Shown: positions 7,426-60,747 of the stretch, in pieces
Position numbering within the stretch: the first letter of the stretch is position 1
Layout of the letters: each line of letters begins with the position of its first letter
IMG/VR virus record: IMGVR_UViG_3300009068_004979
DNA from: a virus
Strand: one strand, 5' to 3'
Length of the DNA stretch: 64,000 nt
Position numbers and translations under genes: made by a program
Notes under the pieces: model-generated
Databases searched by the model: none
What the model was told of the DNA's origin: nothing
What the model saw: only the letters and a program-made list of their open reading frames with translations

Positions 7426-10014
7426 CTATACTCCAAGTAAATCAAATAAGTCTGTTTGAACTTGGCTACCAGGTGTTTTGAGTTTCCATTTAACGGCATC
7501 ATAAAACCGTTCAATCACTGAGAAAACAATTTTTTCAAACATGAGCTCATGATCTGGTTCAAATTTATCGGCAAATTCTTTCGGGAAGTAATATTTGTAT
7601 CCAAGAGCAGTAAGACCGTATCTGTTTGGTTGTCTTACATAGAAATATCTTACTTTATCACCAGAGGTAATATTTTCGTATTTTTTATCAATGCCAAACT
7701 TTTCTAAAAGTATATTGTGATAATACGCAGCCTTAACATGAATAGGCATCTTCTTGGCTACATTAAACCCATCACTGTTTGCAGCATATCCTTCATACCC
7801 CTTAATGCCCATTACAAAGGCAATATCTTCAACAGGCAGTTTCTTGAAGATATCATAGGTCTCTGTAAACACCTTGTTAGTTTCTGTGAAATCTTTTGTT
7901 ATTAACATCGTTTCAATGATCCTTTTTACATGCGGCTTAATGGGAGCAGGCATTGTTGTACGTACAACTTCGACCCCGGTATACTTAAACTTACTGCAGG
8001 GAATGCCTTCCTCATCAAGTACATGCAATACATATCGTTTCTTCTGTAAAAAGAGACCTACATCTGCAATTGCTTCTCTCTTAAACATTAGTCTGCAATC
8101 TTCTGAAGCTAGAGCTTGCTTGCCCCAGACTTTAATTTTTTCATTCAAATAATCTTCAATATCTTGAACTGCTTTATAATATTCTTTTGTTATTTTACCT
8201 TTGCTATCAAGCATTTGTAGTCCTGTCTTTTTTACGAGATGCTTAATAGAGATATAAGAACTATCTGTGTCATTGTAGATGATGGGTGTATCTAAACGAA
8301 GCTCTTCTTCAGTTAAATTGGCTTTTTCCATTATGTACTTTTCAAGTAAAATATTCGATTCTTTGATGACTGCCTGTCCTGTGAGTGTGATGGATTCTGC
8401 AAGCTCATCATCACCGAGCGGGCTGTGCTTATTACCAAAGTACCCATAGATTGTATTAATGAGAATTTTAATTGTGTGTTGCTTGATATTTAAATTATCA
8501 ATTTCGTTCTTAAGCTTCTTGTATTCTGCTGTGCCTTTTTCAAGATTAAGAAGTTGTTTTTTAGCATTCTTAAGCAATTTTTTTAATTCAACGCGTTTGT
8601 CATAATAGTAATCTACTGCTTGAGGAATAATTCCTTTTTCTTTTTGGGAGAAAAGAACTTTAGCTCGTGAAATTGCAATGCGTTCTTTCTTTACAAAATT
8701 TACAAACTTATCATTTGAAAGAGTGAACGTTTGTCCATTTACATGTTTAATAGTAATATCATTGTCGGTCTTATCTACAATACTCCCAATTTTAGTTTCT
8801 GGTGATAAGTTCAATGTTATCATCACATTGGGGTATAGAGAGTTTGCATCAAATGAGACAACATACTCCTGGAAGCCTTGACGAGGTTCACCAACATAAG
8901 CACCTGCATTTTTTGTATCATCTTCACGTATTTCTTTGCTAAAAGTAGGAATTCTCTGATTACGCTCTCTAGCTTTGATAGCACATAAACCGGTAATAAC
9001 AGATAAAGAACCTAGGGCTCCTTCTAGAGTTGTTAGACCAGCGTATGCTATCATTCGAAGAAGCTGTAGATACTGAAGTTTTTCTTCAAGATTTACAAGC
9101 AAGTTTACGTCTTGGATATTATAATCAACAAACGTTTCCCAATTTGTATCTGCTAATGCAGATAAGTTTGTATCTCCATAATCTATCTTACGTTGGCCTA
9201 GCTCAATTTCACCAATGCGATCCAATTTATATGAGTCACGTAGCGTAGGGCAAAACCGTTTGTAGATATCAAGATAATCCACACATGATACACCTTCAAT
9301 GTGCCAGTGCACTTGCTCTTTACCGAATTTTCCTCGGAAAGTTCTTGGTCTTAGATTCCTTACAGGAGATAATCTTTTGGTCTCATCTTCTCCTAAAATC
9401 TTTGTGCACCTATTGATAATATAAGGAATATCAAAAAATTCACTATTCCATCCCGACAGAATATCTGGGTAATCTGATTCAATATAATCAAGAAATTTGC
9501 TAAAGAGCATCTTCTCATCAGCACAATACGTATAGGTCGTATTAGGCGTTGTCTTGGCATACTTTTTTAATCCCCATGTATAGAAGTGCTTCTGCAGGGT
9601 ATCATATGCAGTAATCACATTAACTGTATGCTGGGGATCGTCAGGCTTGGGAAACTCATCCGGGCTATAGGTTTCAATATCGATAAACAATACGCGGAGA
9701 GAATGACGATTAAAATCCGGTTTTTCATTATCACGCCAAAAAGCATCAAGAAGGAATTGTTGATGCACTGAGAAATTTTCAAAAATTCTTGTAACTTTAT
9801 TATCCTTTAAATATCTGCTGCGTTCAGCTTGATTCCGAAATTTCTTCTTCTTTAGCGGGGTGTTGAATATGCTCTTGCAATCAGCATGATTATTTGTCTC
9901 TAAGTAAATATAGGGCTCGTAAGTGGAGTCGACGACAATGCGTTTGCCTGTCTCGTCCCAGGTAAATAAGCGGACCACCTGATCACGCGGAAGATATGCA
10001 ACATTACGGTACAC
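7426..10014 (-). CDS. 43: Family B DNA polymerase (gp43)
   Basis: Exo DIET, GWNSEFFDIPY, YNIQD; pol SFDANSLYP, KILINTIYG, YNDTDS, KKRY; C-terminal clamp-binding-like QTDLFDLL; no intein seen. Confidence 0.97.
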   Translation of the reverse strand: MYRNVAYLPRDQVVRLFTWDETGKRIVVDSTYEPYIYLETNNHADCKSIFNTPLKKKKFRNQAERSRYLKDNKVTRIFENFSVHQQFLLDAFWRDNEKPDFNRHSLRVLFIDIETYSPDEFPKPDDPQHTVNVITAYDTLQKHFYTWGLKKYAKTTPNTTYTYCADEKMLFSKFLDYIESDYPDILSGWNSEFFDIPYIINRCTKILGEDETKRLSPVRNLRPRTFRGKFGKEQVHWHIEGVSCVDYLDIYKRFCPTLRDSYKLDRIGEIELGQRKIDYGDTNLSALADTNWETFVDYNIQDVNLLVNLEEKLQYLQLLRMIAYAGLTTLEGALGSLSVITGLCAIKARERNQRIPTFSKEIREDDTKNAGAYVGEPRQGFQEYVVSFDANSLYPNVMITLNLSPETKIGSIVDKTDNDITIKHVNGQTFTLSNDKFVNFVKKERIAISRAKVLFSQKEKGIIPQAVDYYYDKRVELKKLLKNAKKQLLNLEKGTAEYKKLKNEIDNLNIKQHTIKILINTIYGYFGNKHSPLGDDELAESITLTGQAVIKESNILLEKYIMEKANLTEEELRLDTPIIYNDTDSSYISIKHLVKKTGLQMLDSKGKITKEYYKAVQDIEDYLNEKIKVWGKQALASEDCRLMFKREAIADVGLFLQKKRYVLHVLDEEGIPCSKFKYTGVEVVRTTMPAPIKPHVKRIIETMLITKDFTETNKVFTETYDIFKKLPVEDIAFVMGIKGYEGYAANSDGFNVAKKMPIHVKAAYYHNILLEKFGIDKKYENITSGDKVRYFYVRQPNRYGLTALGYKYYFPKEFADKFEPDHELMFEKIVFSVIERFYDAVKWKLKTPGSQVQTDLFDLLGV

Positions 10015-10020
10015 TTAGTT

Positions 10021-10048
10021 AGTATAATGGAAGAAATAAAAATTACAA
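10021..10048 (-). promoter_or_regulatory. Sigma70-like promoter for gp43
   Basis: TTGTAA-N16-TATACT, 6 nt from GTG. Confidence 0.65.
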
Positions 10049-11257
10049 CCCATTAATAGCATTCAGTAGCTTTCTATCTGAATGGCCATATGGAAGTGTA
10101 TATAACTCAACATATTTGTTAATGTTATCTTCATTCTCAAGCCAACGACTCTCGGCAACTTTTCTTGCTTTAGCACAAGTATTCATATATTTGCCTTTCT
10201 TAGCAAGTGTTGTTTCTATTTGATCTACCATTTCATCACCTGTTTTAAATTTGATTGGTGCATCTTGATATGTAACCATGTCCTGGCAAGCAATAGGAAG
10301 ACCATAGCTACAAGCTTCAATGTATTTTAGATCACTCTTTGCACGATTAAACACATTGTCCTGCAGAGGAGCTACCATCATATTAACGTTGAGGTTATGA
10401 ATTTTTTCTGGGTAATTATAGAGTGACGACCAGGGGTGAAACTCAAAAGTTTTGTTATGTATATAAGACTGCAATGGTAGCGGGAATGCACCTAAGAATA
10501 CCCACTGAAACTTGTCTTTTGTCTTAATAATTGTTTCACATACATGTTCGAAGTCATCTTTTTGACCGACTCTATTATCAACATCAAAGTGTGCTCCTGA
10601 TCCTGCATAAAGAATGCGAGGTTTTTTCTCGTACCGATCATAATTTTCAGATATGCGCTTCTCGTTATAAAACTGGCCCATCCACCACTTCGGAGGATAA
10701 TTAGGAATTACCGTCACATTTCTGTTGCCCGTTTTATCGGCATAGTAATCTTTCATGTAATCACATGTGACAGTAACTTCATCACATAGTGACATAATTT
10801 CTTGTGCACATCTTCTAATCTCTGGATCAGTAAATGCTGGTTTGAATTTATTATACTCAGGAATATCTTCACTAAACATAATATCGTCAATTTCAAAAAT
10901 AATTCTAAACCCAAGCTGTTTGCTAAGCTCTTTAAGAAATTGTACAAACTTGAGCTGGTGTGGTGTAGCTTGTCTTTGTATTCTCACTGCTTGTATGCCA
11001 CGAAAATAATTGGCATCGAAACACATTACTGTACTGCCGTGTACAACCATCTTTTGGTGAGCATTGAGAAGATGTTCAGGCCAAATCATTCTCCAGAAAC
11101 CACAACCTGAGAAATCTGCATAATAATTTAATGCTCTTTTGAGGGATAATTCTGGTGGAGCGGGTACTGATGGCTGCGCTGGTACAATCTGCGACTGTAA
11201 GCCAAATGGTGTAGGAAACGGACTGGCAAAAGGGCTTACAAAGGGAGAGGGATGCAT
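10043..11257 (-). CDS. Glycosyltransferase (GT-B-like)
   Basis: GCGFWRM, EIDD, VIPN, APLQDNVFNRAKSDLKYIE typical of phage GT-B proteins; N-terminal (S/T)PF repeats. Confidence 0.8.
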   Translation of the reverse strand: MHPSPFVSPFASPFPTPFGLQSQIVPAQPSVPAPPELSLKRALNYYADFSGCGFWRMIWPEHLLNAHQKMVVHGSTVMCFDANYFRGIQAVRIQRQATPHQLKFVQFLKELSKQLGFRIIFEIDDIMFSEDIPEYNKFKPAFTDPEIRRCAQEIMSLCDEVTVTCDYMKDYYADKTGNRNVTVIPNYPPKWWMGQFYNEKRISENYDRYEKKPRILYAGSGAHFDVDNRVGQKDDFEHVCETIIKTKDKFQWVFLGAFPLPLQSYIHNKTFEFHPWSSLYNYPEKIHNLNVNMMVAPLQDNVFNRAKSDLKYIEACSYGLPIACQDMVTYQDAPIKFKTGDEMVDQIETTLAKKGKYMNTCAKARKVAESRWLENEDNINKYVELYTLPYGHSDRKLLNAINGL

Positions 11258-22640: not shown

Positions 22641-23054
22641 ATGACATCTTTTAAGCAATTCTATAAAAGACCTGTACTCGGTGTTGGTGAAGTAATAGAT
22701 ATTGCTGGTATAGGGTCTGTAAAAGCCAAGGTTGATAGCGGTAATGAGGCTTTTAATGTTTTGCATGGTACCAATATAAAGGATGAAAATAACGAAGTAA
22801 GCTTTACAACAATTAATAATAAGAACATTAAAAAGCCTAAGCACGATACTATTACAATTCATATAGGCAGCGGTGTGAAGGAAGACAGGCCTGTGGTTTT
22901 ATTTGATATAAAGATAGATGGTAAAGAGTATAAAAATATACCTTTTAGTATAGCTGATAGAACGGAGAACGATGAGCCTGTTCTAGTAGGTGAGCCGTTT
23001 GTGAGACAGCTAAATGCTCTTATTGATGTGAAGAGAGATAATACAGAAGATTAA
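22641..23054 (+). CDS. Retropepsin-like aspartic protease (RimK-associated type)
   Basis: KAKVDSGN catalytic motif, EDRPVV, ADR...VLVG; leader MTSFKQF; TAAATA 5 nt upstream. Confidence 0.8.
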   Translation: MTSFKQFYKRPVLGVGEVIDIAGIGSVKAKVDSGNEAFNVLHGTNIKDENNEVSFTTINNKNIKKPKHDTITIHIGSGVKEDRPVVLFDIKIDGKEYKNIPFSIADRTENDEPVLVGEPFVRQLNALIDVKRDNTED

Positions 23055-23704
23055 TTATTCTTCATGTTGGCAACAAAAGTATAAAATTCTGCTCGAACAG
23101 CAGCATCATTCATAAAGTCACCACTTAGCTTGCTTGTCTTCATCTCACAACCATCATGCTTAATACCGCGGAGACATGCACATGTATGAGTTGCACTCAC
23201 CATAACAGCTACACCGCGATTCTTCTCGCATACTTCATTAATTGCATCATGAATTTGAATAGTAAGACCTTCTTGTATCTGAGGTCTGCGCGCATAAAAC
23301 TCCACAATACGATTCAGCTTACTCAAGCCAATTACTCTGCCTTCAAGAGAAGGAATATAGGCTACATGTGCTTTACCGGTAAAAGCGAGATGATGATGAC
23401 TGCACAAGCTCTTGACTGGAATACCACCTTGAAACACCATGCCATCATAACCATTGCTCGGAAATGATGTTACTTTTGGTGGTTCATTATAACATCCTGC
23501 AGCAAGATCCTGCACAAAAGCTTTAGCAACACGACGAGGTGTATTGGTACTATTCGGATCATTACGCCAATCAAAGCCTAGAGCATCAAGATATGCTTCA
23601 TAAGCTTTTGCAGCTTTCTCAATAATCTCAACTTTCTCTCCCTCTGTATGAGGATGGTTTCCGTTGGCAAACTTCAATCTTACAACTTTACTATATTCTG
23701 ACAT
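23051..23704 (-). CDS. folE: GTP cyclohydrolase I
   Basis: TPRRVAK, SLCSHHHLAF, GLSKLNR, RRPQIQE, HTCACLRG. Confidence 0.96.
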   Translation of the reverse strand: MSEYSKVVRLKFANGNHPHTEGEKVEIIEKAAKAYEAYLDALGFDWRNDPNSTNTPRRVAKAFVQDLAAGCYNEPPKVTSFPSNGYDGMVFQGGIPVKSLCSHHHLAFTGKAHVAYIPSLEGRVIGLSKLNRIVEFYARRPQIQEGLTIQIHDAINEVCEKNRGVAVMVSATHTCACLRGIKHDGCEMKTSKLSGDFMNDAAVRAEFYTFVANMKNN

Positions 23705-24887: not shown

Positions 24888-25670
24888 ATGAATTACGAAA
24901 GTACAAAGATAATTGAATTAGGTTCTTGCGCATTTAGACAATGGAGAGCTGATAGTCATTGCAAATTTATACATGGTTACAGACTAGTAGCTAAGTTCTG
25001 GTTTAAATGTAATCATTTAGATGATAGAAACTGGGTTGTTGATTTTGGTGGTCTAAAAGAACTCAAACAAGTACTCGAAAAACAATTTGACCATACATTA
25101 TGCGTTTCAGCTGACGATCCTCAGATAGAGCTTTTGAAGCAATTACATACTGTCGGAGCATGTGATTTGCGCATTATGCCGAAGGGAGTTGGTATTGAGA
25201 GAACAGCGGAATGGTGCTTTGATGTTGCTGATGGACATATTAGAGGTCTTACAAGCAATAGATGCTGGGTTGATAGAGTTGAGGTATGGGAACATGAAAA
25301 GAATTCTGCAATTGTGAGCTATGAGCATACATGTATTGCAAATCATAATTCTTACGCTGCAGATAGACATATTGCAGAGCAATATGAATTACCATTTAAT
25401 GGAAATGAAACAATATCAACAACCATACAGCCAAATTTACACATGTCAACAACAGTAGCTGCTGGTATTAATATCGATAATGCTAATATAACACCAGTTG
25501 ATGCCCCGACAGATCCAAATACTACTCGTCCAGCTCCTGTGGGTAATCAGAAATCTGTAATTACACAGAGCAATACTAAGCCCGATCACGCTGCTCCAGC
25601 TCGAGTAGGCAAAGCTCCTGTTACACAGGGCTGGTCTAATCCATTTGCTGGAACAAGCTGGGGCGCATAA
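24888..25670 (+). CDS. queD: 6-carboxytetrahydropterin synthase QueD with long C-terminal extension
   Basis: HCKFIHGY, WVVDFGGLK, FDH, VEVWEHEKNSA; about 110-aa P/T/N-rich tail. Confidence 0.88.
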   Translation: MNYESTKIIELGSCAFRQWRADSHCKFIHGYRLVAKFWFKCNHLDDRNWVVDFGGLKELKQVLEKQFDHTLCVSADDPQIELLKQLHTVGACDLRIMPKGVGIERTAEWCFDVADGHIRGLTSNRCWVDRVEVWEHEKNSAIVSYEHTCIANHNSYAADRHIAEQYELPFNGNETISTTIQPNLHMSTTVAAGINIDNANITPVDAPTDPNTTRPAPVGNQKSVITQSNTKPDHAAPARVGKAPVTQGWSNPFAGTSWGA

Positions 25671-26676: not shown

Positions 26677-27417
26677 ATGATCAATAATTCTACCATCTTC
26701 CTCAGTGACGATAAGATATTCTATACAATTGAAGGTGAAGGAGAACACATAGGTAAGCCCTCTGTATTCATGAGATTATCCATGTGCAATCTCACATGTC
26801 AGGGCTTTAAATCAGCTGATGCTCCCTATGGTTGTGATAGTTTTATAAGCTGGTCAGTTAAAAATAAGCTCACAATACAAGACATTTTAAATATGCTTGA
26901 ATCTAATGGATATACGCGATATTTGCAGAATGGTGCTATTTGGAAGATAACTGGTGGTGAACCGCTTATTCAGCAGAATAAGCTTCTAGAACTTGTTGAT
27001 CAATATATATTTAGATTTGGTTATATACCGAAGATTGATTTTGAAACTAACGCTACCATTATGCCTGATCAGCAATGGCTTGATTGGAAGGCTACATTTA
27101 CAACATCACCAAAGCTGAGTAATAATGGTGATCCCGTTGAGAAGAGATATAAACCTGAAGTATTGAAATGGCATGCTAAAAATGGATCAGGGTTTAAGTT
27201 TGTTGTGAATGGGCCCACCGATCTAAATGAGGTAATGTCACGATATATCAATGATCTTGGTGTTCCAAAGCATCGTGTATGGCTCATGCCATGCTGCGGC
27301 AGCAGAGATGAACATACAGTAAAAGCTGCAGCAATCGCAGAGATTTGTAAAGAAAATAATTTTAATTTCAGTCCACGGCTACAGCTAGTCATCTGGGATA
27401 AAGCGCTCAAGGTATAA
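26677..27417 (+). CDS. queE: 7-carboxy-7-deazaguanine synthase QueE (radical SAM)
   Basis: FYTIEGEG, FMRLSMCNLTC...GCDS, ITGGEP, ETN, SPKL, KFVV, PRLQ. Confidence 0.92.
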   Translation: MINNSTIFLSDDKIFYTIEGEGEHIGKPSVFMRLSMCNLTCQGFKSADAPYGCDSFISWSVKNKLTIQDILNMLESNGYTRYLQNGAIWKITGGEPLIQQNKLLELVDQYIFRFGYIPKIDFETNATIMPDQQWLDWKATFTTSPKLSNNGDPVEKRYKPEVLKWHAKNGSGFKFVVNGPTDLNEVMSRYINDLGVPKHRVWLMPCCGSRDEHTVKAAAIAEICKENNFNFSPRLQLVIWDKALKV

Positions 27418-27692: not shown

Positions 27693-28430
27693 ATGAGAAT
27701 TGCCATATGTGGAAGTGCTTGCCAAGGTAAAACTACTCTTGTTAACGATTTTATAAAAGCCTGGCCTAATTATAAAAAATCTGCAGAATCATACCGGGAG
27801 GCAATAAAGAAAGAAAATCTCAAGATTAACAAAGAGATCAACAAAGACAGTCAATGGAAAATTTTAAATTGTCTTATTGATGATGTTCAGAAGACAAACA
27901 AGAACGACTATGTAATTTTTGATCGGTGTCCAATTGATAATCTTGTATATTCTCTCTGGAGTTTTGAGAAACAAACATCAGATATTGATAGAGAATTTAT
28001 TGACAAATGCATTCCACTAGTTCGTGAAAGCATGAAGTTTATTGATATTATCTTCTTTGTACCCATTACAAAAGTTGCCCCGGTGCAGATTGAACCAAAA
28101 GATAATCGAGAGATTGATAAAGAATTTATAGAAGAAACAGATAATATTTTTAAGGCTATTGAATATAGCCTGATGAACAAAGGAACCTGCCCCTTCTTCA
28201 ATGATGATGATAGACCACCAATCATTGAAGTGTTTGGTTCACCAGAGCAAAGAATAGAAATTATTAAGCTATATGTTAATAAGGACGGGGATGTTGTTGA
28301 TGACGGGAGTAGTGTTTTGAGCACAGAAAATATTGATATGATGGAAAAGCTTCTCAGAGAACAAAGAGAAGCCGGTTATCAAGAGAAAATCGAACAAAAA
28401 TTAAAAAATAAAATCATCCTTGGTGAATAA
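27693..28430 (+). CDS. P-loop nucleotide kinase-like protein (AAA_28/NadR-like)
   Basis: GSACQGKTT, IFDRCPID. Confidence 0.8.
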   Translation: MRIAICGSACQGKTTLVNDFIKAWPNYKKSAESYREAIKKENLKINKEINKDSQWKILNCLIDDVQKTNKNDYVIFDRCPIDNLVYSLWSFEKQTSDIDREFIDKCIPLVRESMKFIDIIFFVPITKVAPVQIEPKDNREIDKEFIEETDNIFKAIEYSLMNKGTCPFFNDDDRPPIIEVFGSPEQRIEIIKLYVNKDGDVVDDGSSVLSTENIDMMEKLLREQREAGYQEKIEQKLKNKIILGE

Positions 28431-51603: not shown

Positions 51604-53142
51604 ATGGCAAAACAAATCCGTCCTACACAGGCATACATTGATGAGTCTCGCGCTCGTGTGTTGCTTGAGAAGTGGGGTCCAGTATTGGACTACTCTTCCA
51701 ACAACGTAAGAGCAATCGAAGACGATCACACACGTCTCAATACCGCCATTCTCTTGGAAAACCAGGAAAAGTGGTGCTTTGAGGCTAACAACGCTTCCGG
51801 TGGTACTGCAGGCGGCCTACCTTATGGTCAGGCTGGCTCAGGCGTATTCGGTGGTGAAACAGGTGGCGCCGGTTCATTCGGCAACCAGTTCCCATCACAG
51901 AATGATAACGCATACGCCGCAGGCGATGCTCGTCTTCCGAAGATTCTCATCCCAATGATCAGACGTACGTTCCCTGAGTTGATCACTAACGAAATCGTTG
52001 GTGTTCAGCCCATGAGCGGCCCTGTCGGACTTGCTTTCGCACTTCGTTACAAGTATGAGCCTACCAACTTAGGTTATCAGTCTGGTTCGTTGGACGCAAG
52101 TTCATCATCCCAGTACTACAACAACCTAAGAGGTCTCTCTGCTAACCCTGAATTGGGTTACCAGTACCTCGACACAAGATTCACTGGTGCTTCGTCATCA
52201 GCCTTGTCCGGGGCCACAGGTTTCTTCCAGATGCTCGATCAAGATCGTGGCGTTGCTCAGTTGCTCAGCCAGTTTGAGTTAACAAGCAATATCCCACAGA
52301 TTGTGGTTAGCTTTGAGAAGACTGCAGTTGAAGCTGGTACACGTAGACTCGCAGCTCGTTGGTCAGTTGAACTCGAGCAGGACTTGAAGAACATGAACGG
52401 TATTGATATCGACACTGAGCTCACAAACGCTATGTCTTATGAGCTACAGGCCGAAATCGATCGTGAAATGATCATCAGAATGATTCAGACAGCACTCAAC
52501 GCCGGTTACGGCCAAGGGTTCTCAGTCTGGTCACCTGCTTCAGCAGACGGCCGTTGGCTCGTCGAGCGCAATCGTGACTTCTACCAGAGACTCATCGTTG
52601 AGGCTAACCGTATCGCTGTACGTAACCGCCGTGGTTCAGCTAATTTCGTTGTTGCAACACCTCGTGTGTGCGCAATCCTCGAAATGCTACCTGAATTCCA
52701 GTGGGCACCAGTACAGGGTAATGTTAATACTCAGCCAGTCGGAGTTGCAAAAGTGGGTTCCCTCGCAGGTCGCTTCAACGTGTATCGTGATACACGCACA
52801 GAGGCACAGTTCGAAGCAAATGCTGGCGGTAATTTCGGTGGCTCGGGTCCATTCCCAGCCAACGGTGTTACAGTCGCAAATACTCGTACAACACGTCTTG
52901 AATATGCTCTCCTTGGCTACAAGGGTCCGGAATTCTACGACACTGGTATCATCTATTGTCCGTACATTCCAGTCATGGTGCAGAGAACAATTGGTCCAAA
53001 TGACTTCGCTCCACGCGTTGGTCTATTGACCCGCTATGGTGTTGTTGACAACATCTTTGGCGCTAATCTCTACTACCACGTCATCATCCTTCAGGGTCTT
53101 GGCACAGCATTCCTACCTGGTCAGCAAGCCGTTTACTTCTAA
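51604..53142 (+). CDS. 23: Major capsid protein gp23
   Basis: LLEKW.PVL, LLENQ, GVQPMSGP.GL.FALR, ELEQDLK, EIDRE, YCPYIP, TRYG. Confidence 0.97.
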   Translation: MAKQIRPTQAYIDESRARVLLEKWGPVLDYSSNNVRAIEDDHTRLNTAILLENQEKWCFEANNASGGTAGGLPYGQAGSGVFGGETGGAGSFGNQFPSQNDNAYAAGDARLPKILIPMIRRTFPELITNEIVGVQPMSGPVGLAFALRYKYEPTNLGYQSGSLDASSSSQYYNNLRGLSANPELGYQYLDTRFTGASSSALSGATGFFQMLDQDRGVAQLLSQFELTSNIPQIVVSFEKTAVEAGTRRLAARWSVELEQDLKNMNGIDIDTELTNAMSYELQAEIDREMIIRMIQTALNAGYGQGFSVWSPASADGRWLVERNRDFYQRLIVEANRIAVRNRRGSANFVVATPRVCAILEMLPEFQWAPVQGNVNTQPVGVAKVGSLAGRFNVYRDTRTEAQFEANAGGNFGGSGPFPANGVTVANTRTTRLEYALLGYKGPEFYDTGIIYCPYIPVMVQRTIGPNDFAPRVGLLTRYGVVDNIFGANLYYHVIILQGLGTAFLPGQQAVYF

Positions 53143-53218
53143 ACAAAGTACTCACTTCTGTCCTGATAGGCAGGGGATCAAAAGAAAATATTTTCACCTG
53201 GTCAGTCCCAGGAAATTT

Positions 53219-53251
53219 AAAAAAGGGCCTCTTGCGGGGCCCTTTTTTTTT
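53219..53251 (+). terminator. Intrinsic terminator after gp23
   Basis: AAAAGGGCCTC-ttgc-GGGGCCCTTTTTTTTT. Confidence 0.9.
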
Positions 53252-53305
53252 GGAAAAATAGTTGTATACTTGAAAAAAGTGCAAAATCTAGAATAAATAC
53301 TTTAT

Positions 53306-53839
53306 ATGGCAACAACAGTTACAGCTCCATTTTCTACTAATGCAACCAATACTGCTACATTCAATAGTGCAGTCTCTTCATTTACAGCTTATATTCCAGC
53401 CTCCGGCTTGATTGACAGCAACTTCCCAACAGGTGTTCTATCCGGTAGCAACACAGTGTATAGTGGATCTCTTTCATTTGTACTCACAGCCATAGCTGGC
53501 AATACCATTGCTGGTGGCGATTCATCCATTCTTTTGACAGTATCTGCTGCTCCTGGTAATAACCTTTTCTACGGCTTTGTAAAAAGTAGCTCTTATGTGC
53601 CTGCAACAAGAATAGCCACATTTGCTATTGGATTTTATGGATCAGACTATATTTCAACAACCATCAATCTTTCAGCCAACGGCGTTTCCAATGTGGTTGT
53701 TGCAGATCCAACATTGTCTTCACCATTTGATATAGCATTCCAGTACGTACCAGGTTTGGATAACGATGTACTCGGTGGCAATGTTTCCTACATTCACACA
53801 GTATCAGACTTCCTCAGAAGACTGAATCTTAACGGCTAA
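53306..53839 (+). CDS. Putative virion (capsid decoration?) protein
   Basis: TAAATA 6 nt upstream; S/T/A/G-rich, few charged residues; follows gp23. Confidence 0.5.
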   Translation: MATTVTAPFSTNATNTATFNSAVSSFTAYIPASGLIDSNFPTGVLSGSNTVYSGSLSFVLTAIAGNTIAGGDSSILLTVSAAPGNNLFYGFVKSSSYVPATRIATFAIGFYGSDYISTTINLSANGVSNVVVADPTLSSPFDIAFQYVPGLDNDVLGGNVSYIHTVSDFLRRLNLNG

Positions 53840-54754
53840 TTACTGCCGCGGTGTTTTAACAAAATACTTGTACTGATCCACTAGCACTTTATCAAGTAAT
53901 TCTGCTTTGTTTGCTCTGGTAGGATTAATATCAATGCCACCTCTGCGCACATACAAGCAAGACACTACAAGTTCTTCTGGTTCAAATCTATCATAGATTC
54001 TTTTGTAGATGGTCTCGCAAATCTCTTCATGAAAATGACACTCGTCCCTGAATGATACAACATACTTTAACACCGATGTTACATTGAACAGATGCTTGCC
54101 TTTGTAGTGAATGTACACATCACCCCAATCTGGCTGTGATGTTACTCTGCAATTGCTCTTCAATAAAGCAGAATGAAATCTCTGAGTCTTAGATTCAGTT
54201 AATAATTCTGCGCTCAACAAATTAGGATTCTCCTTGTAATCTGCAGTCTCAATAGTTGTAACATCAATAAGATTCTCCAGAGTAGGATAAGAGCCATTAC
54301 TAAAGATAGGCGGATAGTAAACACTATCATCAACTGCAGCGGTCAAACGAACATAGACCCGAACTTCTGTTTCTAATAGGTCGGATAGATCATTACGAAT
54401 TTTTGCTTCAAGCTGTTGCAGCACGTTAATTATTGTGCCATCAAACACTTCCATGTTAAAGGAATTCATGTACAGTTTGATGGACTTGGATTCCACAATG
54501 TATTTGTTATTAGCAGGATACACAATCTTTGCCACAGCTGCAATGGGCATGCCATATTCTGTTAAGCATGAAACTTCATATGCATTCCAAATATCATAAC
54601 CGGCAAAGGGAGGTGCATCATCACTGATATTCAAGTGTTTTCTGTTGTTAGCCCGGGGCTCTCTAACGAGCAGAGATGGATCATAGGTACACTTGTATCC
54701 TGTTATTTTGCCCAGATGCTTTGATATGTTACTGTTATCTAATTCCGTGTTCAT
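53840..54754 (-). CDS. queF: NADPH-dependent preQ0 reductase QueF (two-domain type)
   Basis: DIWNAYEVS, VESKSIKLY, LKSNCRVTSQPDWG, FHEEICE, RRGGIDINP. Confidence 0.95.
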   Translation of the reverse strand: MNTELDNSNISKHLGKITGYKCTYDPSLLVREPRANNRKHLNISDDAPPFAGYDIWNAYEVSCLTEYGMPIAAVAKIVYPANNKYIVESKSIKLYMNSFNMEVFDGTIINVLQQLEAKIRNDLSDLLETEVRVYVRLTAAVDDSVYYPPIFSNGSYPTLENLIDVTTIETADYKENPNLLSAELLTESKTQRFHSALLKSNCRVTSQPDWGDVYIHYKGKHLFNVTSVLKYVVSFRDECHFHEEICETIYKRIYDRFEPEELVVSCLYVRRGGIDINPTRANKAELLDKVLVDQYKYFVKTPRQ

Positions 54755-55322
54755 TAAGTTTTATTTTAATTGCTTCCATTCGATCTTCCACTGTTCCCTT
54801 TAAGATAGTTACTTTTCCCTTTAGTCTTTCATCTGACAACCAGAAATTTTCATATAGATCAATAATTGCATCTCTAAATTCTTTATTAACACTTCTCTCA
54901 CCATCATCTACTAACGGAACATCATGAGGACTTGGATAGAAGATATGATCATACCTATGAATATGATTCACATAGTACATCAATCCCAAACTATTAGACA
55001 CAGGAAAATCATTCAACTTCCCTCTAGCAAAATAAGTTGTAAACACCATGCCATCCATCAAGCAACGATCATGCAGTATGCCTTGAAATCCAAACCCTTT
55101 GTAATTATAGAATAAATTCTCAAACTCCTTATTAAGAATCAAAGTTTGAGTTACATCATTTGCACCAGTTTCATTTATATCAACCCCATACTCGCGTTTA
55201 ATCAGTCTAGTAACTTCATCAATGTAGCAAAGCTTAGAACCATAGTACTCCTTACACTTCTTTAAAAGAGTAGTCTTACCCGAACACTGCGGACCTGTAA
55301 AAGTAAAAATCATTTGCCCCAC
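54735..55322 (-). CDS. P-loop nucleotide kinase-like protein
   Basis: GPQCSGKTT, HDRCLMD, DDGERS. Confidence 0.8.
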   Translation of the reverse strand: MGQMIFTFTGPQCSGKTTLLKKCKEYYGSKLCYIDEVTRLIKREYGVDINETGANDVTQTLILNKEFENLFYNYKGFGFQGILHDRCLMDGMVFTTYFARGKLNDFPVSNSLGLMYYVNHIHRYDHIFYPSPHDVPLVDDGERSVNKEFRDAIIDLYENFWLSDERLKGKVTILKGTVEDRMEAIKIKLNEHGIR

Positions 55323-55657
55323 TTACCATTATATACTATTTCTGCTATAATGCCATACACTGCTGAGTCTCTAAATGCATCCATGACAGGCTCATTAGCC
55401 GAATTCATGGCTTTCTTTTTTAAGACCAAATTAATTAGGCGTTGAATTTTATCATTGAGGCGCACCACAATGGCAGAAACTGCTGCAAATTTATCCTCTT
55501 GTTTTACCAGATCAGAACCCAAAGAAATATTTCCTGGACCATAGTCAAACTGTTTCTTGCAAAATGTTTCGTATAATTCAGCTTGTATTTTTTGAAACTC
55601 TTTGCATGTTTCTGGAAAATTTTTCTCAACGTATTTGACAATATCTTCTTTGTTCAT
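55310..55657 (-). CDS. DUF1599-like nucleotide-modification-associated protein (all-alpha NTP pyrophosphatase-like)
   Basis: KKQFDYG..N, RLNDKIQRL.NL, E...D...D...YGII. Confidence 0.7.
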   Translation of the reverse strand: MNKEDIVKYVEKNFPETCKEFQKIQAELYETFCKKQFDYGPGNISLGSDLVKQEDKFAAVSAIVVRLNDKIQRLINLVLKKKAMNSANEPVMDAFRDSAVYGIIAEIVYNGKWGK

Positions 55658-56613
55658 AATCTTACCCCGTACGGTACTTTACTTAAATTTAACGCGCCCA
55701 GATTGCAACCACCAGCATAACTTATTGCACTCTGCAAGTCCTGCTTTATCTCTTCCATTTTTTCGAGATATGTGAATGTATCTGTTTCCATGAGCTTCAT
55801 TGTACCTTCAATATTTTTCTTTTCAATCTTATTATGCTGACTTGCAGAACCAAAGTATTGTTTATACCGCCTGCCACTTGCATCCTTAACAAGTGGTGCC
55901 GGGCTATCCGAACAAGCAGCAAATATGGACCCACACATGACCATGCTTGCACCTGCTACAAGAGCTTTAGCGATATCACCGTTGCAGCGCACTCCGCCGT
56001 CTGCAATAATGGGAATATTTCTATCCTTGGCGCATTCTATTATGCAGCTAAACATAGGATAGGTGAACCCTGTCTTGTCTTTTGTAGTGCATGCATACCC
56101 ACCACCAATGCCGGCTTTTACAACATCAGCCCCAACATTATGTAAATATTCTACACCTTGAAAAGTTGCAACATTGCCTGCAATAATCTTTGCATTGGGA
56201 ATCACTTGCTTGATATGTTTAATTTGATCTGCTACTTTTGAATGATGGCCATGAGCAACATCTATGGTTATAAAATCGACTCTCATCATGCTCTGCGCAA
56301 TGGATGTTAATATGTTCTTATCTTTCTGCTGTATCCCTACACTTATAGAGATAGTATGAAACTCTTGAAGATTAGCATAGCGGACAAAGTTGTTTATATC
56401 TTCATCAAACCTATGCATGATATAAAAATAGCCATGCTTATCTAAAAGCATGCATGTGTCTGTATCTACACAACACTTCATATTTGCAGGCACAACTGGT
56501 AGCTTAAATGTACGAGATCCAAACATTATATCTGTATCAATCTCTGCTCTGGATTGTACTGAATTAAAATTAGGCTTGAGAAAAACGTTTTCGTAGTGTA
56601 GAGATAAATCCAT
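55654..56613 (-). CDS. guaC: GMP reductase
   Basis: LPVVPANM, YFYIMHRF, ITIDVAHGH, AGNV, GIGGGYACTT, IIADGG, YFGSAS, LQSAISYAG. Confidence 0.92.
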   Translation of the reverse strand: MDLSLHYENVFLKPNFNSVQSRAEIDTDIMFGSRTFKLPVVPANMKCCVDTDTCMLLDKHGYFYIMHRFDEDINNFVRYANLQEFHTISISVGIQQKDKNILTSIAQSMMRVDFITIDVAHGHHSKVADQIKHIKQVIPNAKIIAGNVATFQGVEYLHNVGADVVKAGIGGGYACTTKDKTGFTYPMFSCIIECAKDRNIPIIADGGVRCNGDIAKALVAGASMVMCGSIFAACSDSPAPLVKDASGRRYKQYFGSASQHNKIEKKNIEGTMKLMETDTFTYLEKMEEIKQDLQSAISYAGGCNLGALNLSKVPYGVRL

Positions 56614-56614
56614 A

Positions 56615-57184
56615 TTAGCGTTCTAAGATTTTATATGCTGTGAAAAAGCTTTTCCAGAGATCAAGTGCTGTGTCTCGCAATGCACCGTAAACACCACCTA
56701 ACGACATTCCCTCAATGCCTGTGCCCTGGCTCATTAATATTTCTCCTTCATCTACCCCAGGTGTTACTCTGTGTATAACACAGCCTGCTAATTTATACCC
56801 CTCAGCAAAAGCTCTTTCTTGTGGATTGAATCCCTTTAAAGAAGGATATTTATCTATCAATCCAGGATGCAAATTATATATTTCATATTTTTCACAAATC
56901 TCTTTGGGAATAATTCTTAAAAACCCATGCAATGTAATAACAGGGTTCTCAAAACAATTCAATACGCCTTCATAGTCACTCACAGTTGGTTTCTGCGGCA
57001 ACTGAATCCAAATATTTTCATTTAGTTTCTGTGATCTAAATTCTGTTACTACTTTTAATCTAATATTAGTATTCTTATGATTCTGTTTGTTTGTTGCAAT
57101 ACAATCTGGGTATATGCCAAGTGCATTACTAAGATCATATATCTCAGTACCAGTTTGCGAAAAAAATGTTACCCAAGGTCTCAT
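56615..57184 (-). CDS. PurN-like formyltransferase (candidate preQ1 formyltransferase, DpdN-like)
   Basis: FFSQTG, LHGFLRII, YNLHPG, GCVIHRV..GVDEG. Confidence 0.82.
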   Translation of the reverse strand: MRPWVTFFSQTGTEIYDLSNALGIYPDCIATNKQNHKNTNIRLKVVTEFRSQKLNENIWIQLPQKPTVSDYEGVLNCFENPVITLHGFLRIIPKEICEKYEIYNLHPGLIDKYPSLKGFNPQERAFAEGYKLAGCVIHRVTPGVDEGEILMSQGTGIEGMSLGGVYGALRDTALDLWKSFFTAYKILER

Positions 57185-57993
57185 CTGCGAACAATCTTCT
57201 TAAACATTGCAGTGTTATACTTTACAAGTTCAAGTTGATCATCTGTAAAATTGTGTGTAATGAGGTCAGCTAATTTAGTTGATGGTTTATTATCTAAACC
57301 ATAATCAGCATCATACTTCAATCCATGTATAGCAGCAACAACGGGATTGCTGGTATCACAACTAACAATATTGTTAATATCTCTATCCACATAATATCTA
57401 AACTCCTTAGCTAAAGAGCAACCAAGCAGATGATGCGGCTTGCTCCAATTCCATACACCTGTATTTATGAGATCAGCAATGAAGCGCTGACGGCCAGTGC
57501 ACCACTTCTCAAGATGTGTCATACCTTCACCAGTAGTTAGGTAATAACTAAAATCAAAACTTATGGCAATCATGTCAGCATTATCTGCCATAAATTTGTA
57601 GCATTCTTTTAACTCATGCCAAGTTTTACCCTGCACAGCGCCTATGGCTTTTGTAAGAAAACTATCCTTAATATTGAGTGTGTAATTCGCAAAAGCTTTG
57701 AAGCTTTGCATTGTGCCTTGAGCATCTTCCAGCACATCTGGCACAATAAACATGTTTGGCTTGATCTCTTTAGCCTTTACCCAGAACTCGCGACTATCAA
57801 AAGCTTTACCCAATTCAAAAATAGAATTATCAAGCAGCACTTCTCTATTGTAAATATGTCTAGCTGATTTAAAAAAGTCATTATATGCAGGATATTGATC
57901 CAAGAGATGCACAAGACAGTAGTCAAAATCATTATAATCCCTTGAGAGATCAAGTATAGATACAGGAGATTCGTGAGATACTTTCATTAGCAT
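57181..57993 (-). CDS. TGT/DpdA-like guanine transglycosylase (start corrected to ATG 57993)
   Basis: LLDNSIFE, VPDV, GAVQG, HHLLG, SCDTS correspond to TGT-barrel motifs; leads the queF operon. Confidence 0.72.
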   Translation of the reverse strand: MLMKVSHESPVSILDLSRDYNDFDYCLVHLLDQYPAYNDFFKSARHIYNREVLLDNSIFELGKAFDSREFWVKAKEIKPNMFIVPDVLEDAQGTMQSFKAFANYTLNIKDSFLTKAIGAVQGKTWHELKECYKFMADNADMIAISFDFSYYLTTGEGMTHLEKWCTGRQRFIADLINTGVWNWSKPHHLLGCSLAKEFRYYVDRDINNIVSCDTSNPVVAAIHGLKYDADYGLDNKPSTKLADLITHNFTDDQLELVKYNTAMFKKIVRR

Positions 57994-57999
57994 AATAAC

Positions 58000-58027
58000 A
58001 TTATACAAGTAAATAATAATATATCAA
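58000..58027 (-). promoter_or_regulatory. Sigma70-like promoter of the TGT-like to queF operon, overlapping a divergent late TAAATA (58010-58015, +)
   Basis: TTGATA-N16-TATAAT, 6 nt from ATG 57993. Confidence 0.72.
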
Positions 58028-58029
58028 CA

Positions 58030-60747
58030 ATGAATTATCCACAATATTACGGTAATTACCTGGGCATAGTTGTACAGAATAACGATCCGCTTAAGCGCGG
58101 CCGTGTTAAAGTTTTTGTACCACATATTTCACCGACTGTATACAAAAATTGGACAGAAATTAAAAGGGACAAGAAATTTAAATTCGTTGGTGTTAACACA
58201 TACAGTGATTTAACAGATGTTGTAGAAGATTTAAAAAGGATTTTACCTTGGGCTGAATGTGCTGCTCCTCTAGCAGGTCAATCAAGTAGTGGTCGGTATA
58301 ATGTGTATCAAAATACCGGTTCCATAAGCAGCAGCAACAAGTTACCCACAACAGTATCTAATCTTTCATCATGCGAAATAACGCCAGAAATTTTAACCAA
58401 ATATACTCAAAATCGTGATGCAATCGGTGAGAAGCCAGGCAACATGTATGATGCAAATTACTTCCGACTTAATGATGCATTCAGTGATCCCACGCAAACC
58501 AATGTTAATAATGTTAATAAATTGAGTTATGCATATACACCTGAATGCTATAGTAACAGTGCTAATGGTGCTTTTGCTATCCCCAATGTAGGGTCTCATT
58601 TGTGGGTATTTTTTAACGCCGGTGATCCATTAAGACCAGTTTATTTTGCTTCTTCATTTGGTGTTGAGGATTGGAGAAGTATTTTTGATGCTGGTAGTGC
58701 TCGCTCAACAGATTTTTCTATTGTAACAGGAGCTAGTCAGGGCATGGATTACCCGGGTGAATATGAAAACAAAAGACTTGCTGCAAACGAAGAATATAAT
58801 ATCAATACAGAAAATTATCGCAACAAATATGTTATCAACCAGAAAGGCGGCACATTACAATTTGTAAATTCTGATAATCGAGAGATGTTAAAGCTAACTC
58901 ACTTCTCCGGTTCATTCAAGGAATTTAATAATTATGCAAATATTGAGCTTGCTACTGCTAATGATCAAAAATTAGTAATGGGAGATCAATTCCTAACGGT
59001 GCGCGGTGATAGAAATGAATATACTGAAAAAGATCATGACTTCCTAGTCAAAGGAGATTATTTTAGAAAAATTGGCAATTTGAACGCTGACCTAGCCAAA
59101 CAATGGAAGGGGATTGTCAGTGAAATTGCAGACTTGAAACAGCTGTTTGATATTCAACGCACTAATGGAACAAGTACAGGTGTTCCAAAACTTTCTTCAA
59201 AATTACAGAAAAAATTAGGCAGAGCTGCACCTTGTCCAGTATGCTCTGATCCTTTCAATACATATTTTTATTATAATAATTCTTACCTGCCTGTAGGGTT
59301 TACTAATCAAGTAAACGGAACATTAGCTGACAGTGGTGGTGATTACTTGTACTCCATGTCCATTGTAAATGGTGTTTCACTACCTAGTGTTAGATACCCC
59401 GGTCTTCTGGGCACAGTAAACTATACCAGCCCCAATACAGTGCTAGGTGGTGCCGTTGATTTTTCTGTGTGGCCATCAGGCAACGGTCGTATCTTTGGCG
59501 CCAAATGCCCATGCTGCAATGGTACAACTCTGAGCCCTTCATCCTATGCAGGAGATTGGGTAGCCGATAGTAGAAAGTCTCAAATAACAGCTAAGATTAA
59601 TAATCAAATTGCCACATTAGCTGAAATAGAGAAGAAAATGGGTCTGGGTGGTAATGAAATTGTAGAAATTACCAAACACAAAATTGAAACAATTGGAACA
59701 GTTATGAATGATTTCGGATCAATTAGAGTTGATCCACAAGGAAAAATCTTCATAACAGATGTGCAGATAGCACCATATGGAGTATTCTATAACCGCCAGC
59801 CATCGCCACTCATTGAATATGTGCACGTGGATGACTTACCTGGTGGTAATTACACACTTAATGTATGTAATCGTTACAATGTGCAAGTGGGTTCTGGTGG
59901 TATCAATTTAAAAACATATGGACCCCTTAACATAGCAGGTGCCATTACTAATGTAGCTGGTGAACAGGTCAATATTGCCAGTGAAAATGAAGTAAACATA
60001 GATGGTGGCAGAAGATTGTCACTCATTGCTGATATCATTAGCATCAGACAGAGAAACAGAAAGCAGGTTGTAATTGAAGGCAATCTTGGCATTACTGCTA
60101 ATGCTACTGTAGCAGGCTCCATGCATGTGGAAGGTGAAATCTTTACTAACCATGTAACCGCACCAGTGGAAATACAAGCTACAGAGCAGTCCACTGTGTA
60201 TGGTGCTGCCGCAACAGACTTCAATAATAACAATGGCAAGATCATTGGCTTTGGTGTGCCCATGTCAAAATTGGCTCTTAAGGGTAGACTGGGCAAGTTC
60301 TACACACCCAATCAAGTGGGTACTGCATACATTGGTAAGACTGACAGCACTGTGTTTATTGGTAAAACAGATACTGCACAAATTGTTGGATACCTAAAAC
60401 CTGCAGATGTTAGCGCCATGATAAAAGACGGCGATGGAGATCCATGCAGCGCTACCGGTAATGTACCAATTTATGGTAGCAATATTAACTGTGTCAAAGG
60501 TACTGATATTAATGGTGTGTATGGTTCCAATGAAGGTGGCACAGGTGCAACAGCTGAATCAATGCCCATCATTGTGTATGGCACTGGGCGCGATGATGAC
60601 AGTGTCAAGATGGATCCACACAGTCACTTATTTAAAAACTTACCACTCACACTATATGAGACAAATAGTGAAGTAAGAAAAGCTGCAAGTACCATTAACG
60701 ACGGTGCTCAGGTCTGTTGCAATCCGGTTACAAATAATCAGAAATAA
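58030..60747 (+). CDS. Baseplate hub/central spike protein (gp5/VgrG-like)
   Basis: OB-fold start YLGIVVQNNDPLKRGRVKV, PWA, P.VGS..WVFF..GD...PVY, beta-helix-like repeats, C-terminal HSH. Confidence 0.8.
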   Translation: MNYPQYYGNYLGIVVQNNDPLKRGRVKVFVPHISPTVYKNWTEIKRDKKFKFVGVNTYSDLTDVVEDLKRILPWAECAAPLAGQSSSGRYNVYQNTGSISSSNKLPTTVSNLSSCEITPEILTKYTQNRDAIGEKPGNMYDANYFRLNDAFSDPTQTNVNNVNKLSYAYTPECYSNSANGAFAIPNVGSHLWVFFNAGDPLRPVYFASSFGVEDWRSIFDAGSARSTDFSIVTGASQGMDYPGEYENKRLAANEEYNINTENYRNKYVINQKGGTLQFVNSDNREMLKLTHFSGSFKEFNNYANIELATANDQKLVMGDQFLTVRGDRNEYTEKDHDFLVKGDYFRKIGNLNADLAKQWKGIVSEIADLKQLFDIQRTNGTSTGVPKLSSKLQKKLGRAAPCPVCSDPFNTYFYYNNSYLPVGFTNQVNGTLADSGGDYLYSMSIVNGVSLPSVRYPGLLGTVNYTSPNTVLGGAVDFSVWPSGNGRIFGAKCPCCNGTTLSPSSYAGDWVADSRKSQITAKINNQIATLAEIEKKMGLGGNEIVEITKHKIETIGTVMNDFGSIRVDPQGKIFITDVQIAPYGVFYNRQPSPLIEYVHVDDLPGGNYTLNVCNRYNVQVGSGGINLKTYGPLNIAGAITNVAGEQVNIASENEVNIDGGRRLSLIADIISIRQRNRKQVVIEGNLGITANATVAGSMHVEGEIFTNHVTAPVEIQATEQSTVYGAAATDFNNNNGKIIGFGVPMSKLALKGRLGKFYTPNQVGTAYIGKTDSTVFIGKTDTAQIVGYLKPADVSAMIKDGDGDPCSATGNVPIYGSNINCVKGTDINGVYGSNEGGTGATAESMPIIVYGTGRDDDSVKMDPHSHLFKNLPLTLYETNSEVRKAASTINDGAQVCCNPVTNNQK

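Follow-up and report, generated by a model that had tools for sequence, protein, structure and literature searches.

A predicted fdPreQ1 DNA module in a T4-like phage, and the level at which its DpdA3 transglycosylase may exchange guanine

Introduction

Complete replacement of a canonical base in DNA is rare, and shields phage DNA from restriction enzymes and some CRISPR nucleases. The locus described here, an operon of six minus-strand open reading frames (ORFs) at positions 53840–57993 of a 64,000 nt stretch of viral DNA (IMG/VR record IMGVR_UViG_3300009068_004979; the whole stretch is referred to as the window), raises the question of how a phage might replace its guanine, and whether the base is exchanged in finished DNA or in a nucleotide that the polymerase then incorporates. 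From the genes present and their relatives we predict that this phage replaces the guanine of its DNA with 7-(formylamino)methyl-7-deazaguanine (fdPreQ1). Our best overall explanation, to which we give a probability of about 0.55, is an fdPreQ1 module in which exchange would take place at the nucleotide level, with kinases, a GMP reductase (GuaC) and a DUF1599-like protein as helper.

The enzymes FolE, QueD, QueE and QueC convert GTP to preQ0, and QueF converts preQ0 to preQ1. Base exchange in finished DNA is the accepted mechanism for 7-deazaguanine modification, and it leaves the 100 % replacement seen in phages with DpdA3 unexplained. In the DNA of Flavobacterium phage immuto_2-6A, liquid chromatography–mass spectrometry found dA, dC, dT and fdPreQ1, and no dG (Cui et al., 2023; PMC10516641). 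The paper that defined DpdA3 and DpdN proposed that all 7-deazaguanine modifications are post-replicative, associated 100 % replacement only with DpdA3, and did not achieve DpdA3 activity in E. coli; formylation by immuto DpdN was put forward there as a proposal. The words ‘kinase’ and ‘GMP reductase’ are absent from that paper. An earlier note on the window had read the operon as a nucleotide-pool pathway and suggested that its GuaC, kinase and DUF1599 arm might be undescribed; indeed, the paper does not mention these genes.

Results

All six ORFs lie on the minus strand between gp23 and a gp5-like baseplate gene, and in order they specify a DpdA3-type transglycosylase, the formyltransferase DpdN, a GMP reductase, a 115-aa DUF1599-like protein, an AAA_28 kinase and QueF. 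Successive junctions are a 4 nt overlap, a 1 nt gap and overlaps of 4, 13 and 20 nt, the 13 nt junction shrinking to 4 nt if the kinase starts at the ATG at 55313. A sigma-70-like promoter, TTGATA-16-TATAAT (58000–58027, minus strand; 11 of 12 consensus matches), is the best promoter-like site in the region 53000–58600 and lies inside the 36 nt gap ahead of the first gene; the frequency of weaker internal matches did not exceed that seen in shuffled sequence. The earlier description of six coupled genes behind one promoter thus holds for all six ORFs and for the upstream site. A megablast search with the operon found nothing similar in 50,697 phage genomes.

The first gene (57181–57993, minus strand) probably starts at the ATG at 57987, as judged by alignment with homologues, and so specifies 270 aa. 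It is silent in both Pfam and NCBIfam, and a sequence search of the PDB returned nothing for this protein, for the operon kinase or for the 115-aa protein; it is therefore identified by its resemblance to phage DpdA3 and by its fold. The protein is 44.7 % identical to DpdA of immuto_2-6A over 93 % of the query (E 4e-57) and 46 % identical to gp056 of Campylobacter phage CP220 (E 1e-50), which answers the question, left by the earlier note, of where it falls among the DpdA subfamilies: it is a DpdA3-type 7-deazaguanine transglycosylase. Its model (pLDDT 96) is a bare (beta/alpha)8 barrel of the tRNA-guanine transglycosylase (TGT) type, with a Foldseek probability of 1.00 to TGT. Comparison in VIA gave Z 18.0 to archaeosine TGT (ArcTGT; rmsd 2.9, 236 residues aligned), 17.5 to DpdA (7UI4), 16.6 to bacterial TGT and 15.0 to Cap10, a CBASS enzyme that joins deazaguanine to protein. 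Thus, the label TGT-like given in the earlier note is borne out by DpdA3 similarity and by fold, and finds no match in the family databases.

A profile of the DpdA3 family found one sequence match in the PDB, DpdA 7UI4 (E 0.36), with the HLLG...SxDTSNP motif aligned, and residues D55, D86 and D213 are invariant. With the bacterial DpdA/DpdB system and with TGT, DpdA3 shares the barrel (Z 16.6–18.0) and the HLLG...(I/D)D(S/T) active-site motif. It differs from them in being shorter (270 aa, compared with 413 residues in the DpdA chain and 373 in TGT), in belonging to an acidic family (median pI 5.5; 94 % of members below 7) and in lacking the extra segments and the zinc subdomain, a search of DpdA3 for a CxCxxC motif having found none; nor is there a DpdB-like ATPase beside DpdA3. 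The family is large: 2883 proteins were found in 90 %-identity clusters (E <= 0.001), and 1496 among 50 %-identity representatives in an exhaustive search. Many are encoded on contigs of 150–230 kb, and this, together with their abundance, indicates that such genomes are common in nature.

Two family members, P0245 and P0304, are fusions of DpdA3 with DpdN, whereas inspection of 150 representatives turned up no fusion of DpdA3 to a kinase. Other architectures also occur. In P0255 (locus L127, 1149–2408), DpdA3 carries a 160-aa C-terminal tail that is GNAT-like by eye and has no Pfam match, and the neighbouring genes specify an AAA_28 kinase, a dCTP-deaminase-like protein and Vut_1, a YhhQ-type preQ0/preQ1 transporter; in P0271, DpdA3 is preceded by a 317-aa N-terminal domain that matches no known family. 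Deazaguanine DNA may thus come in further acylated forms. Additionally, a distant gp23 relative (L189, 9538–10296, minus strand) has a 252-aa protein in the DpdA3 position, upstream of kinase and QueF; the DpdA3 profile fails to match this protein (E 0.19), whose sole weak similarity is to ORFs of Lak megaphages.

The second gene (56615–57184, minus strand) was assigned to DpdN, a PurN-like preQ1 formyltransferase, by a Pfam Formyl_trans_N match of 55.5 bits and by 45.6 % identity to gp204 (DpdN) of immuto. The link between DpdN and formylated dPreQ1 in a Flavobacterium phage, which the earlier note had mentioned, is correct. The closest solved relatives of the DpdN family profile are glycinamide ribonucleotide (GAR) transformylases, whose substrate is a 5'-phosphoribosyl compound bearing a primary aminomethyl amine. 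Residues N104, H106 and D145 are invariant across 17 sequences and align to the NIHPSL and VDAG motifs of GAR transformylases, and an SxxG(T/S) loop aligns with the phosphate loop of PurN. By these resemblances, DpdN is predicted to formylate the aminomethyl group of preQ1.

The last gene (53840–54754, minus strand) specifies a two-domain QueF (QueF_N 114.3 bits, QueF 76.7 bits; TIGR03138 264.7 bits against a cut-off of 293) that is 46 % identical to the immuto enzyme. The remaining preQ1 genes were found elsewhere in the window, as the earlier note had said. FolE, GTP cyclohydrolase I (23051–23704, minus strand), scores 166.8 bits in Pfam and is 59 % identical to immuto FolE; QueC, the preQ0 synthase (5109–5864, minus strand), scores 189.7 bits in Pfam and 160 bits with TIGR00364 (cut-off 150.3). 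QueD, a 260-aa member of the PTPS family (24888–25670, plus strand), matches PTPS over residues 14–143 (60.4 bits) and is 39 % identical to immuto QueD, its C-terminal ∼110 aa having no family match. For the QueE-like radical S-adenosylmethionine (SAM) protein (26677–27417, plus strand; 22 % identity to immuto QueE) all five NCBIfam matches are QueE models, the best at 53 bits. The preQ1 pathway is thus complete within the window.

The same pathway is complete in immuto, where the gene order is DpdA3 (gp206), a 50-aa ORF, DpdN (gp204), a ‘thymidylate kinase’ (gp203) and QueF (gp202). The two systems hence share DpdA3, DpdN, kinase and QueF in the same order, and their enzymes are 30–59 % identical; in immuto, a gene of the all-alpha nucleoside triphosphate pyrophosphohydrolase type, PRA-PH (MazG-type), also lies two genes upstream of DpdA3. 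They differ in the polymerase, which is of family A in immuto and of family B, on a T4-like backbone, here; in the GuaC and DUF1599-like genes, which are inserted in the operon here; and in a phosphoribosyltransferase, which lies inside the immuto cluster and, in the present lineage, only in related complete genomes and outside the operon. The earlier proposal of a formyl-preQ1 DNA module is supported by this homology to the DpdA3, DpdN and QueF of a phage whose DNA is 100 % fdPreQ1; sequence comparison places the core of the module within the known fdPreQ1 DpdA3 system, as a new member carried by another kind of virus.

CP220 and its relatives, in which the 7-amido-7-deazaguanine nucleoside dADG reaches 100 % replacement, offer a second comparison. 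Their DpdA3 is 46 % identical to that of the window, an AAA_28 kinase lies directly downstream of it and a nucleotide phosphohydrolase, an HD domain fused to a kinase, directly upstream, and most records have a second AAA_28 copy elsewhere. They differ in lacking QueF and DpdN, in having neither GuaC nor DUF1599 in the cluster, and in their product.

We compared 97 complete IMG/VR loci from the same T4-like lineage. Co-occurrence of all six genes, the check named in the earlier note, was borne out for three of them: DpdA3, kinase and QueF are present in that order in 97/97 loci. For the other three it was not, as DpdN was found in 68/97, the DUF1599-like protein in 62/97 and a type-2 GuaC inside the operon in 27/97.

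The invariant kinase (54735–55322, minus strand) matches Pfam AAA_28 (PF13521) at 45.7 bits against a gathering threshold of 27, is a ‘thymidylate kinase’ by PHROG, has the Walker A motif GPQCSGKTT, and is ∼30 % identical to the kinases that adjoin DpdA3 in immuto and CP220. When its family was sought by tblastn in the 50,697 phage genomes, the sole carriers were Campylobacter phages of the CP220 type and immuto, matches that cover 18/18 records with a strong DpdA3 match; furthermore, an AAA_28 gene adjoins DpdA3 in five of seven distant DpdA3 representatives (34–46 % identity). A second AAA_28 paralogue (27693–28430, plus strand; Pfam 46 bits) adjoins QueE in the window and has orthologues (43–59 % identical) in three complete related genomes; exactly two AAA_28 genes were counted in every one of these (3/3). 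Most Campylobacter DpdA3 phage records likewise have two kinase places, and the two enzymes may carry out successive phosphorylation steps. If the base were swapped in finished DNA there would be no obvious role for a kinase, whereas raising a modified nucleoside monophosphate to the triphosphate would require one.

The third gene (55654–56613, minus strand) specifies a probable type-2 GMP reductase (Pfam IMPDH 187 bits; NCBIfam PRK05458). Against curated cut-offs it scores 341.5 compared with 344 bits for PRK05458 and 302 compared with 466 for TIGR01306, and it is ∼46 % identical to GuaC of B. anthracis (1YPF; 257 bits). Its GIGGGYACTTK and NIEG motifs align with GIGPGKVCITK and NVEG of 1YPF, the aligned Cys-x-Thr and Glu-Gly being the catalytic residues of GMP reductases. 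Two other forms occupy related operons: in L039 a type-1 GMP reductase follows QueF (551 bits against a cut-off of 397), and the form in L092, the third, is diverged and carries an additional domain at its N terminus. As the three are only 28–30 % identical to one another, they appear to have been recruited separately. In six further loci a LOG/PpnN-like nucleotide nucleosidase appears to take the place of GuaC, as read directly in L041 only; there (9236–10497) the nucleosidase (234 aa) and a PF18909 protein lie between DpdN and the kinase. What GMP reductases and the nucleosidase have in common is removal of GMP, which is consistent with a drain on that pool. L039 (12962–20667) has additional genes between kinase and QueF, namely a DegT-type aminotransferase, an FkbM methyltransferase and a 437-aa GNAT protein, and its QueF has a 139-aa N-terminal extension ahead of the reductase gene; these extra genes may serve a further or different base decoration.

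The fourth gene (55310–55657, minus strand) specifies a helical protein of 115 aa that had been called DUF1599-like and pyrophosphatase-like. By tblastn it is 33–36 % identical, over 77–87 % of the query (E 3e-4 to 2e-6), to phage proteins whose annotation reads DUF1599 or ‘nucleotide modification associated domain’, and 27 of the 30 clusters nearest to it in a protein atlas carry PF07659. Searches of Pfam and NCBIfam were nevertheless empty for it. The Pfam DUF1599 model (PF07659) itself gave no match even at E<=10, and because of this silence we call the protein DUF1599-like rather than a DUF1599 member. The relation to DUF1599 was hence retained from the earlier description, whereas a pyrophosphatase fold could not be demonstrated. 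The model (pLDDT 88) has four helices, and prediction of a complex with DpdN scored 0.00, which we read neither way.

Its distribution follows that of DpdN. Amongst the 68 loci with DpdN, 62 have the DUF1599-like protein and six (L041, L082, L090, L091, L106 and L109; the loci with the nucleosidase slot) have at the same position, between DpdN and kinase, a 117-aa protein with a PF18909 domain (78 bits), a dATP/dGTP diphosphohydrolase of the MazZ type, whilst both proteins are missing from all 29 loci that lack DpdN (0/29). The DUF1599-like protein is fused to the C terminus of DpdN in L083, L089, L094 and L095, and a DUF1599-like tail is fused onto DpdA3 in an unrelated phage (hhalign E 0.0016, with shared motifs). 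In two further unrelated phages, Microcystis phage Mel-JY01 (L048, 6791–11929) and the crAss-like cr108_1 (L049, 6046–9082), DUF1599-like and GMP-reductase/IMPDH-family genes lie 3–4 kb apart in a setting of replication and nucleotide genes (thymidylate synthase, dUTPase, SAM synthase).

The rest of the window specifies a T4-like backbone, including the gp23 capsid protein (51604–53142), a family B polymerase (7426–10014), a DnaB-like helicase, UvsX, UvsW, UvsY and a gp46/47-like pair; the source is predicted to be an uncultured T4-like phage with a genome of roughly 210–230 kb, and the operon to be early. Between gp23 and QueF lies a 177-aa ORF (53306–53839, plus strand) whose stop abuts that of the convergent QueF gene, with zero spacer and no terminator-like site at the junction; its homologues are present in only part of the related loci. 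Two genes from QueC (2846–4218, minus strand) we found a stand-alone class-II glutamine amidotransferase domain (227 aa, of the GlmS/PurF N-terminal type) together with a glycosyltransferase. Gat-QueC fusions yield archaeosine DNA in other phages, and this amidotransferase could belong either to the deazaguanine pathway or to the sugar genes of the window.

Discussion

At which level, then, might guanine be exchanged? We propose that DpdA3, as a minimal TGT barrel, would exchange guanine for deazaguanine and that DpdN would formylate the aminomethyl group, both by homology to the measured system, and that the two steps would use as substrate a nucleoside 5'-monophosphate in free form, dGMP being the simplest candidate. 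The two AAA_28 kinases would then raise the modified nucleotide toward the triphosphate, which the gp43 polymerase would incorporate. GuaC would be a working GMP reductase that lowers canonical guanine nucleotides and passes the purine to IMP, and the DUF1599-like protein, together with DpdN, may act as a small gatekeeper of the nucleotide pyrophosphohydrolase type, returning dGTP or non-formylated dPreQ1 triphosphate to the monophosphate.

Such a route would mirror that by which T4 makes hydroxymethyl-dC, in which gp56 is the dCTPase, gp42 the dCMP hydroxymethylase and gp1 the deoxynucleoside monophosphate kinase. Along with the Z-genome pathway (MazZ, PurZ, DatZ), this is a working analogy only, in the sequence of pyrophosphohydrolase, base modification of the deoxynucleoside monophosphate and dedicated kinase; the enzymes are non-homologous save for the MazZ-like protein of the sister loci (MazZ is described in PMC8342488). 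Base exchange by a TGT-fold enzyme on free nucleotides would, to our knowledge, be unprecedented. That DpdA3 is the first TGT-superfamily enzyme to swap the base of free dGMP, and that phages with complete 7-deazaguanine genomes run a full pre-replicative pathway, in which a pyrophosphohydrolase-type gatekeeper, formylation of the monophosphate and two dedicated kinases are joined by a GMP reductase or a nucleosidase that keeps canonical guanine nucleotides low, is a fuller claim that we hold at slightly worse than even odds.

The most serious rival is the published model, in which DpdA3 swaps G for preQ1 in newly replicated DNA and DpdN formylates dPreQ1 within that DNA, the kinase, GuaC and DUF1599-like protein being co-transcribed early genes of general metabolism, e.g. 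for guanine salvage or to rebalance purines where the genome is AT-rich. DNA is the substrate of bacterial DpdA and of phage DpdA1 and DpdA2, the authors of DpdA3 propose post-replicative action for every DpdA, and the nearest solved folds of DpdA3 are polynucleotide transglycosylases; moreover, unrelated phages have GMP reductases and DUF1599 proteins within ordinary modules for nucleotide metabolism and replication, and one complete relative has its GuaC outside the operon. Exchange at the nucleotide level is favoured, on the other hand, by the invariable linkage of the kinase to DpdA3, by the fusions among DpdA3, DpdN and DUF1599, and by the MazZ-like and LOG/PpnN-like genes that take the DUF1599 and GuaC positions. 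The published model leaves unexplained a kinase family restricted to DpdA3 phages among the 50,697 genomes and adjacent to DpdA3 in three unrelated phage groups, as it does the fusions and the MazZ-like replacement. Three distinct lineages of GMP reductase in the operon also argue for the nucleotide level, as do the GAR transformylase kinship of DpdN with its phosphate-loop position kept, and the PRA-PH gene of immuto and the HD-plus-kinase gene of CP220 near DpdA3. DpdA3 is itself short, lacks the zinc motif and belongs to an acidic family, and the published model would need such an enzyme, without the extra DNA-binding parts of DpdA or a DpdB-like ATPase, to exchange the base at every G in all contexts. 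Finally, DpdA3 on its own was inactive in E. coli, and 100 % replacement is known only with DpdA3, which again favours the nucleotide level. We therefore regard the published model as unlikely for this system, although it is the strongest of the rivals; the comparative evidence tips towards a pre-replicative route by something close to an even bet. The earlier note had favoured such a route, and the kinase linkage, the fusions, the slot replacements and the GMP-reductase lineages lend it comparative support, whereas the substrate level of DpdA3 still rests on inference.

Several observations weigh against exchange at the nucleotide level. In the one paper on DpdA3, insertion is proposed to follow replication, and all characterised enzymes of the TGT superfamily that we know of act on tRNA, DNA or protein. 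Gene linkage cannot reveal which molecule the kinase phosphorylates, and the 97 loci share kinship, such that they cannot be counted as independent events. The slot in distant gp23 relatives contains a kinase alone, QueF alone, or QueF and kinase behind the 252-aa protein, with no DpdA3 on the contig (these contigs being 7–37 % complete). Fold searches with the 115-aa protein returned generic helical matches (VIA Z ∼7), the best all-alpha pyrophosphohydrolase row in Foldseek being 2p06 (E 4.8), and hhalign of this protein with the MazZ-like substitutes was not significant (E 0.056–0.057), with only a (D/K)YG..N motif in common. A complete relative with a minimal operon has no copy of the DUF1599-like gene anywhere, and MazG, PRA-PH, HD and PF18909 proteins were sought in the three complete related genomes without a match, although the PF18909 search was also empty in control genomes and is hence weak; a dedicated dGTP-clearing enzyme thus appears to be no general requirement. 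A complete minimal-operon genome has its type-2-like GuaC (41 % identical) outside the operon, GMP reductases are found in many phages not known for deazaguanine DNA, and a GMP drain would be in competition with FolE for GTP, which muddies the case for a pure drain.

These points bear most directly on two roles that the earlier note had assigned. It had cast the DUF1599 protein as a general drain on dGTP, which is the less likely role, since the gene follows DpdN rather than DpdA3 and is missing from the complete minimal-operon genome; the same distribution makes a role tied to formylation more likely. We tentatively suggest that the protein and DpdN act together at the level of a nucleotide, the gatekeeper function described above being the likeliest; alternatively, it could be a non-catalytic subunit of DpdN. 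The drain by GuaC survives in part: GMP removal is indeed the common factor in the slot, whereas the enzyme is lineage-wide, sometimes lies outside the operon and would compete with FolE.

A second rival would assemble the nucleotide from phosphoribosyl pyrophosphate (PRPP), as in tubercidin and toyocamycin synthesis. A phosphoribosyltransferase would join preQ0 or preQ1 to PRPP, kinases and ribonucleotide reductase would lead on to the deoxynucleoside triphosphate, and DpdA3 would mop up residual G or serve some other purpose. A precedent exists in TubE, which joins 7-carboxy-7-deazaguanine (CDG) to PRPP to give a 7-deazapurine nucleotide, and in TubD, an NADPH-dependent reductive deaminase and GMP-reductase homologue that acts on a 7-deazapurine nucleotide (both PMC6112128). 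These clusters (TubE/ToyH phosphoribosyltransferase, TubD/ToyE and the Nudix protein TubG) resemble the present module, as we propose it, in combining, at the nucleotide level, a FolE/QueD/QueE core with a GMP-reductase homologue and a nucleotide hydrolase, and differ from it in making secondary metabolites, with neither a transglycosylase nor a DNA product (PMC6112128). Furthermore, phosphoribosyltransferase genes lie inside the deazaguanine clusters of immuto and of an immuto-like contig, and all three complete related genomes have one (G003, C1:15725–16120; G005, C1:65706–66098; G001, C1:14305–14571), in open frames of 156 and 159 aa in G003 and G005, where they are small and Gpt-like, and of 299 aa in G001. 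No such gene was found in the window or in the operon, however, and the scheme would leave the invariant DpdA3 without a necessary role and would require a reductase accepting a bulky 7-substituted GDP analogue, of which none is known. The Gpt-like enzyme could take part in PRPP-dependent synthesis of the deazapurine nucleotide, or could salvage guanine freed by DpdA3, which explains it equally well; we consider this route improbable.

The weakest rival, in which GuaC would act like TubD/ToyE on the 7-deazaguanine nucleotide and remove its 2-amino group, so that phages with all six genes would carry a 7-substituted 7-deazahypoxanthine, draws on the place of GMP-reductase homologues in 7-deazapurine nucleoside pathways (PMC6112128), on the three GMP-reductase lineages in the operon and on Campylobacter Fletcherviruses, where, according to PMC13091555, hypoxanthine can replace G in phage DNA, but is very improbable given that the window and L039 enzymes, of two types, score at and far above the thresholds for true GMP reductases (which fits recruitment of the canonical activity), that the nucleosidase in the same slot of six loci shares only GMP removal with GuaC, that one relative has GuaC outside the operon, and that PurA- or PurB-like follow-on enzymes are lacking.

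Should guanine indeed be exchanged at the nucleotide level, what attempts at reconstitution have lacked would be the kinases, probably assisted by a pyrophosphohydrolase and by removal of GMP. A further class of substrate would be added to those of the TGT fold, and the operon would provide a compact gene set for the enzymatic synthesis of fully 7-deazaguanine-substituted DNA.

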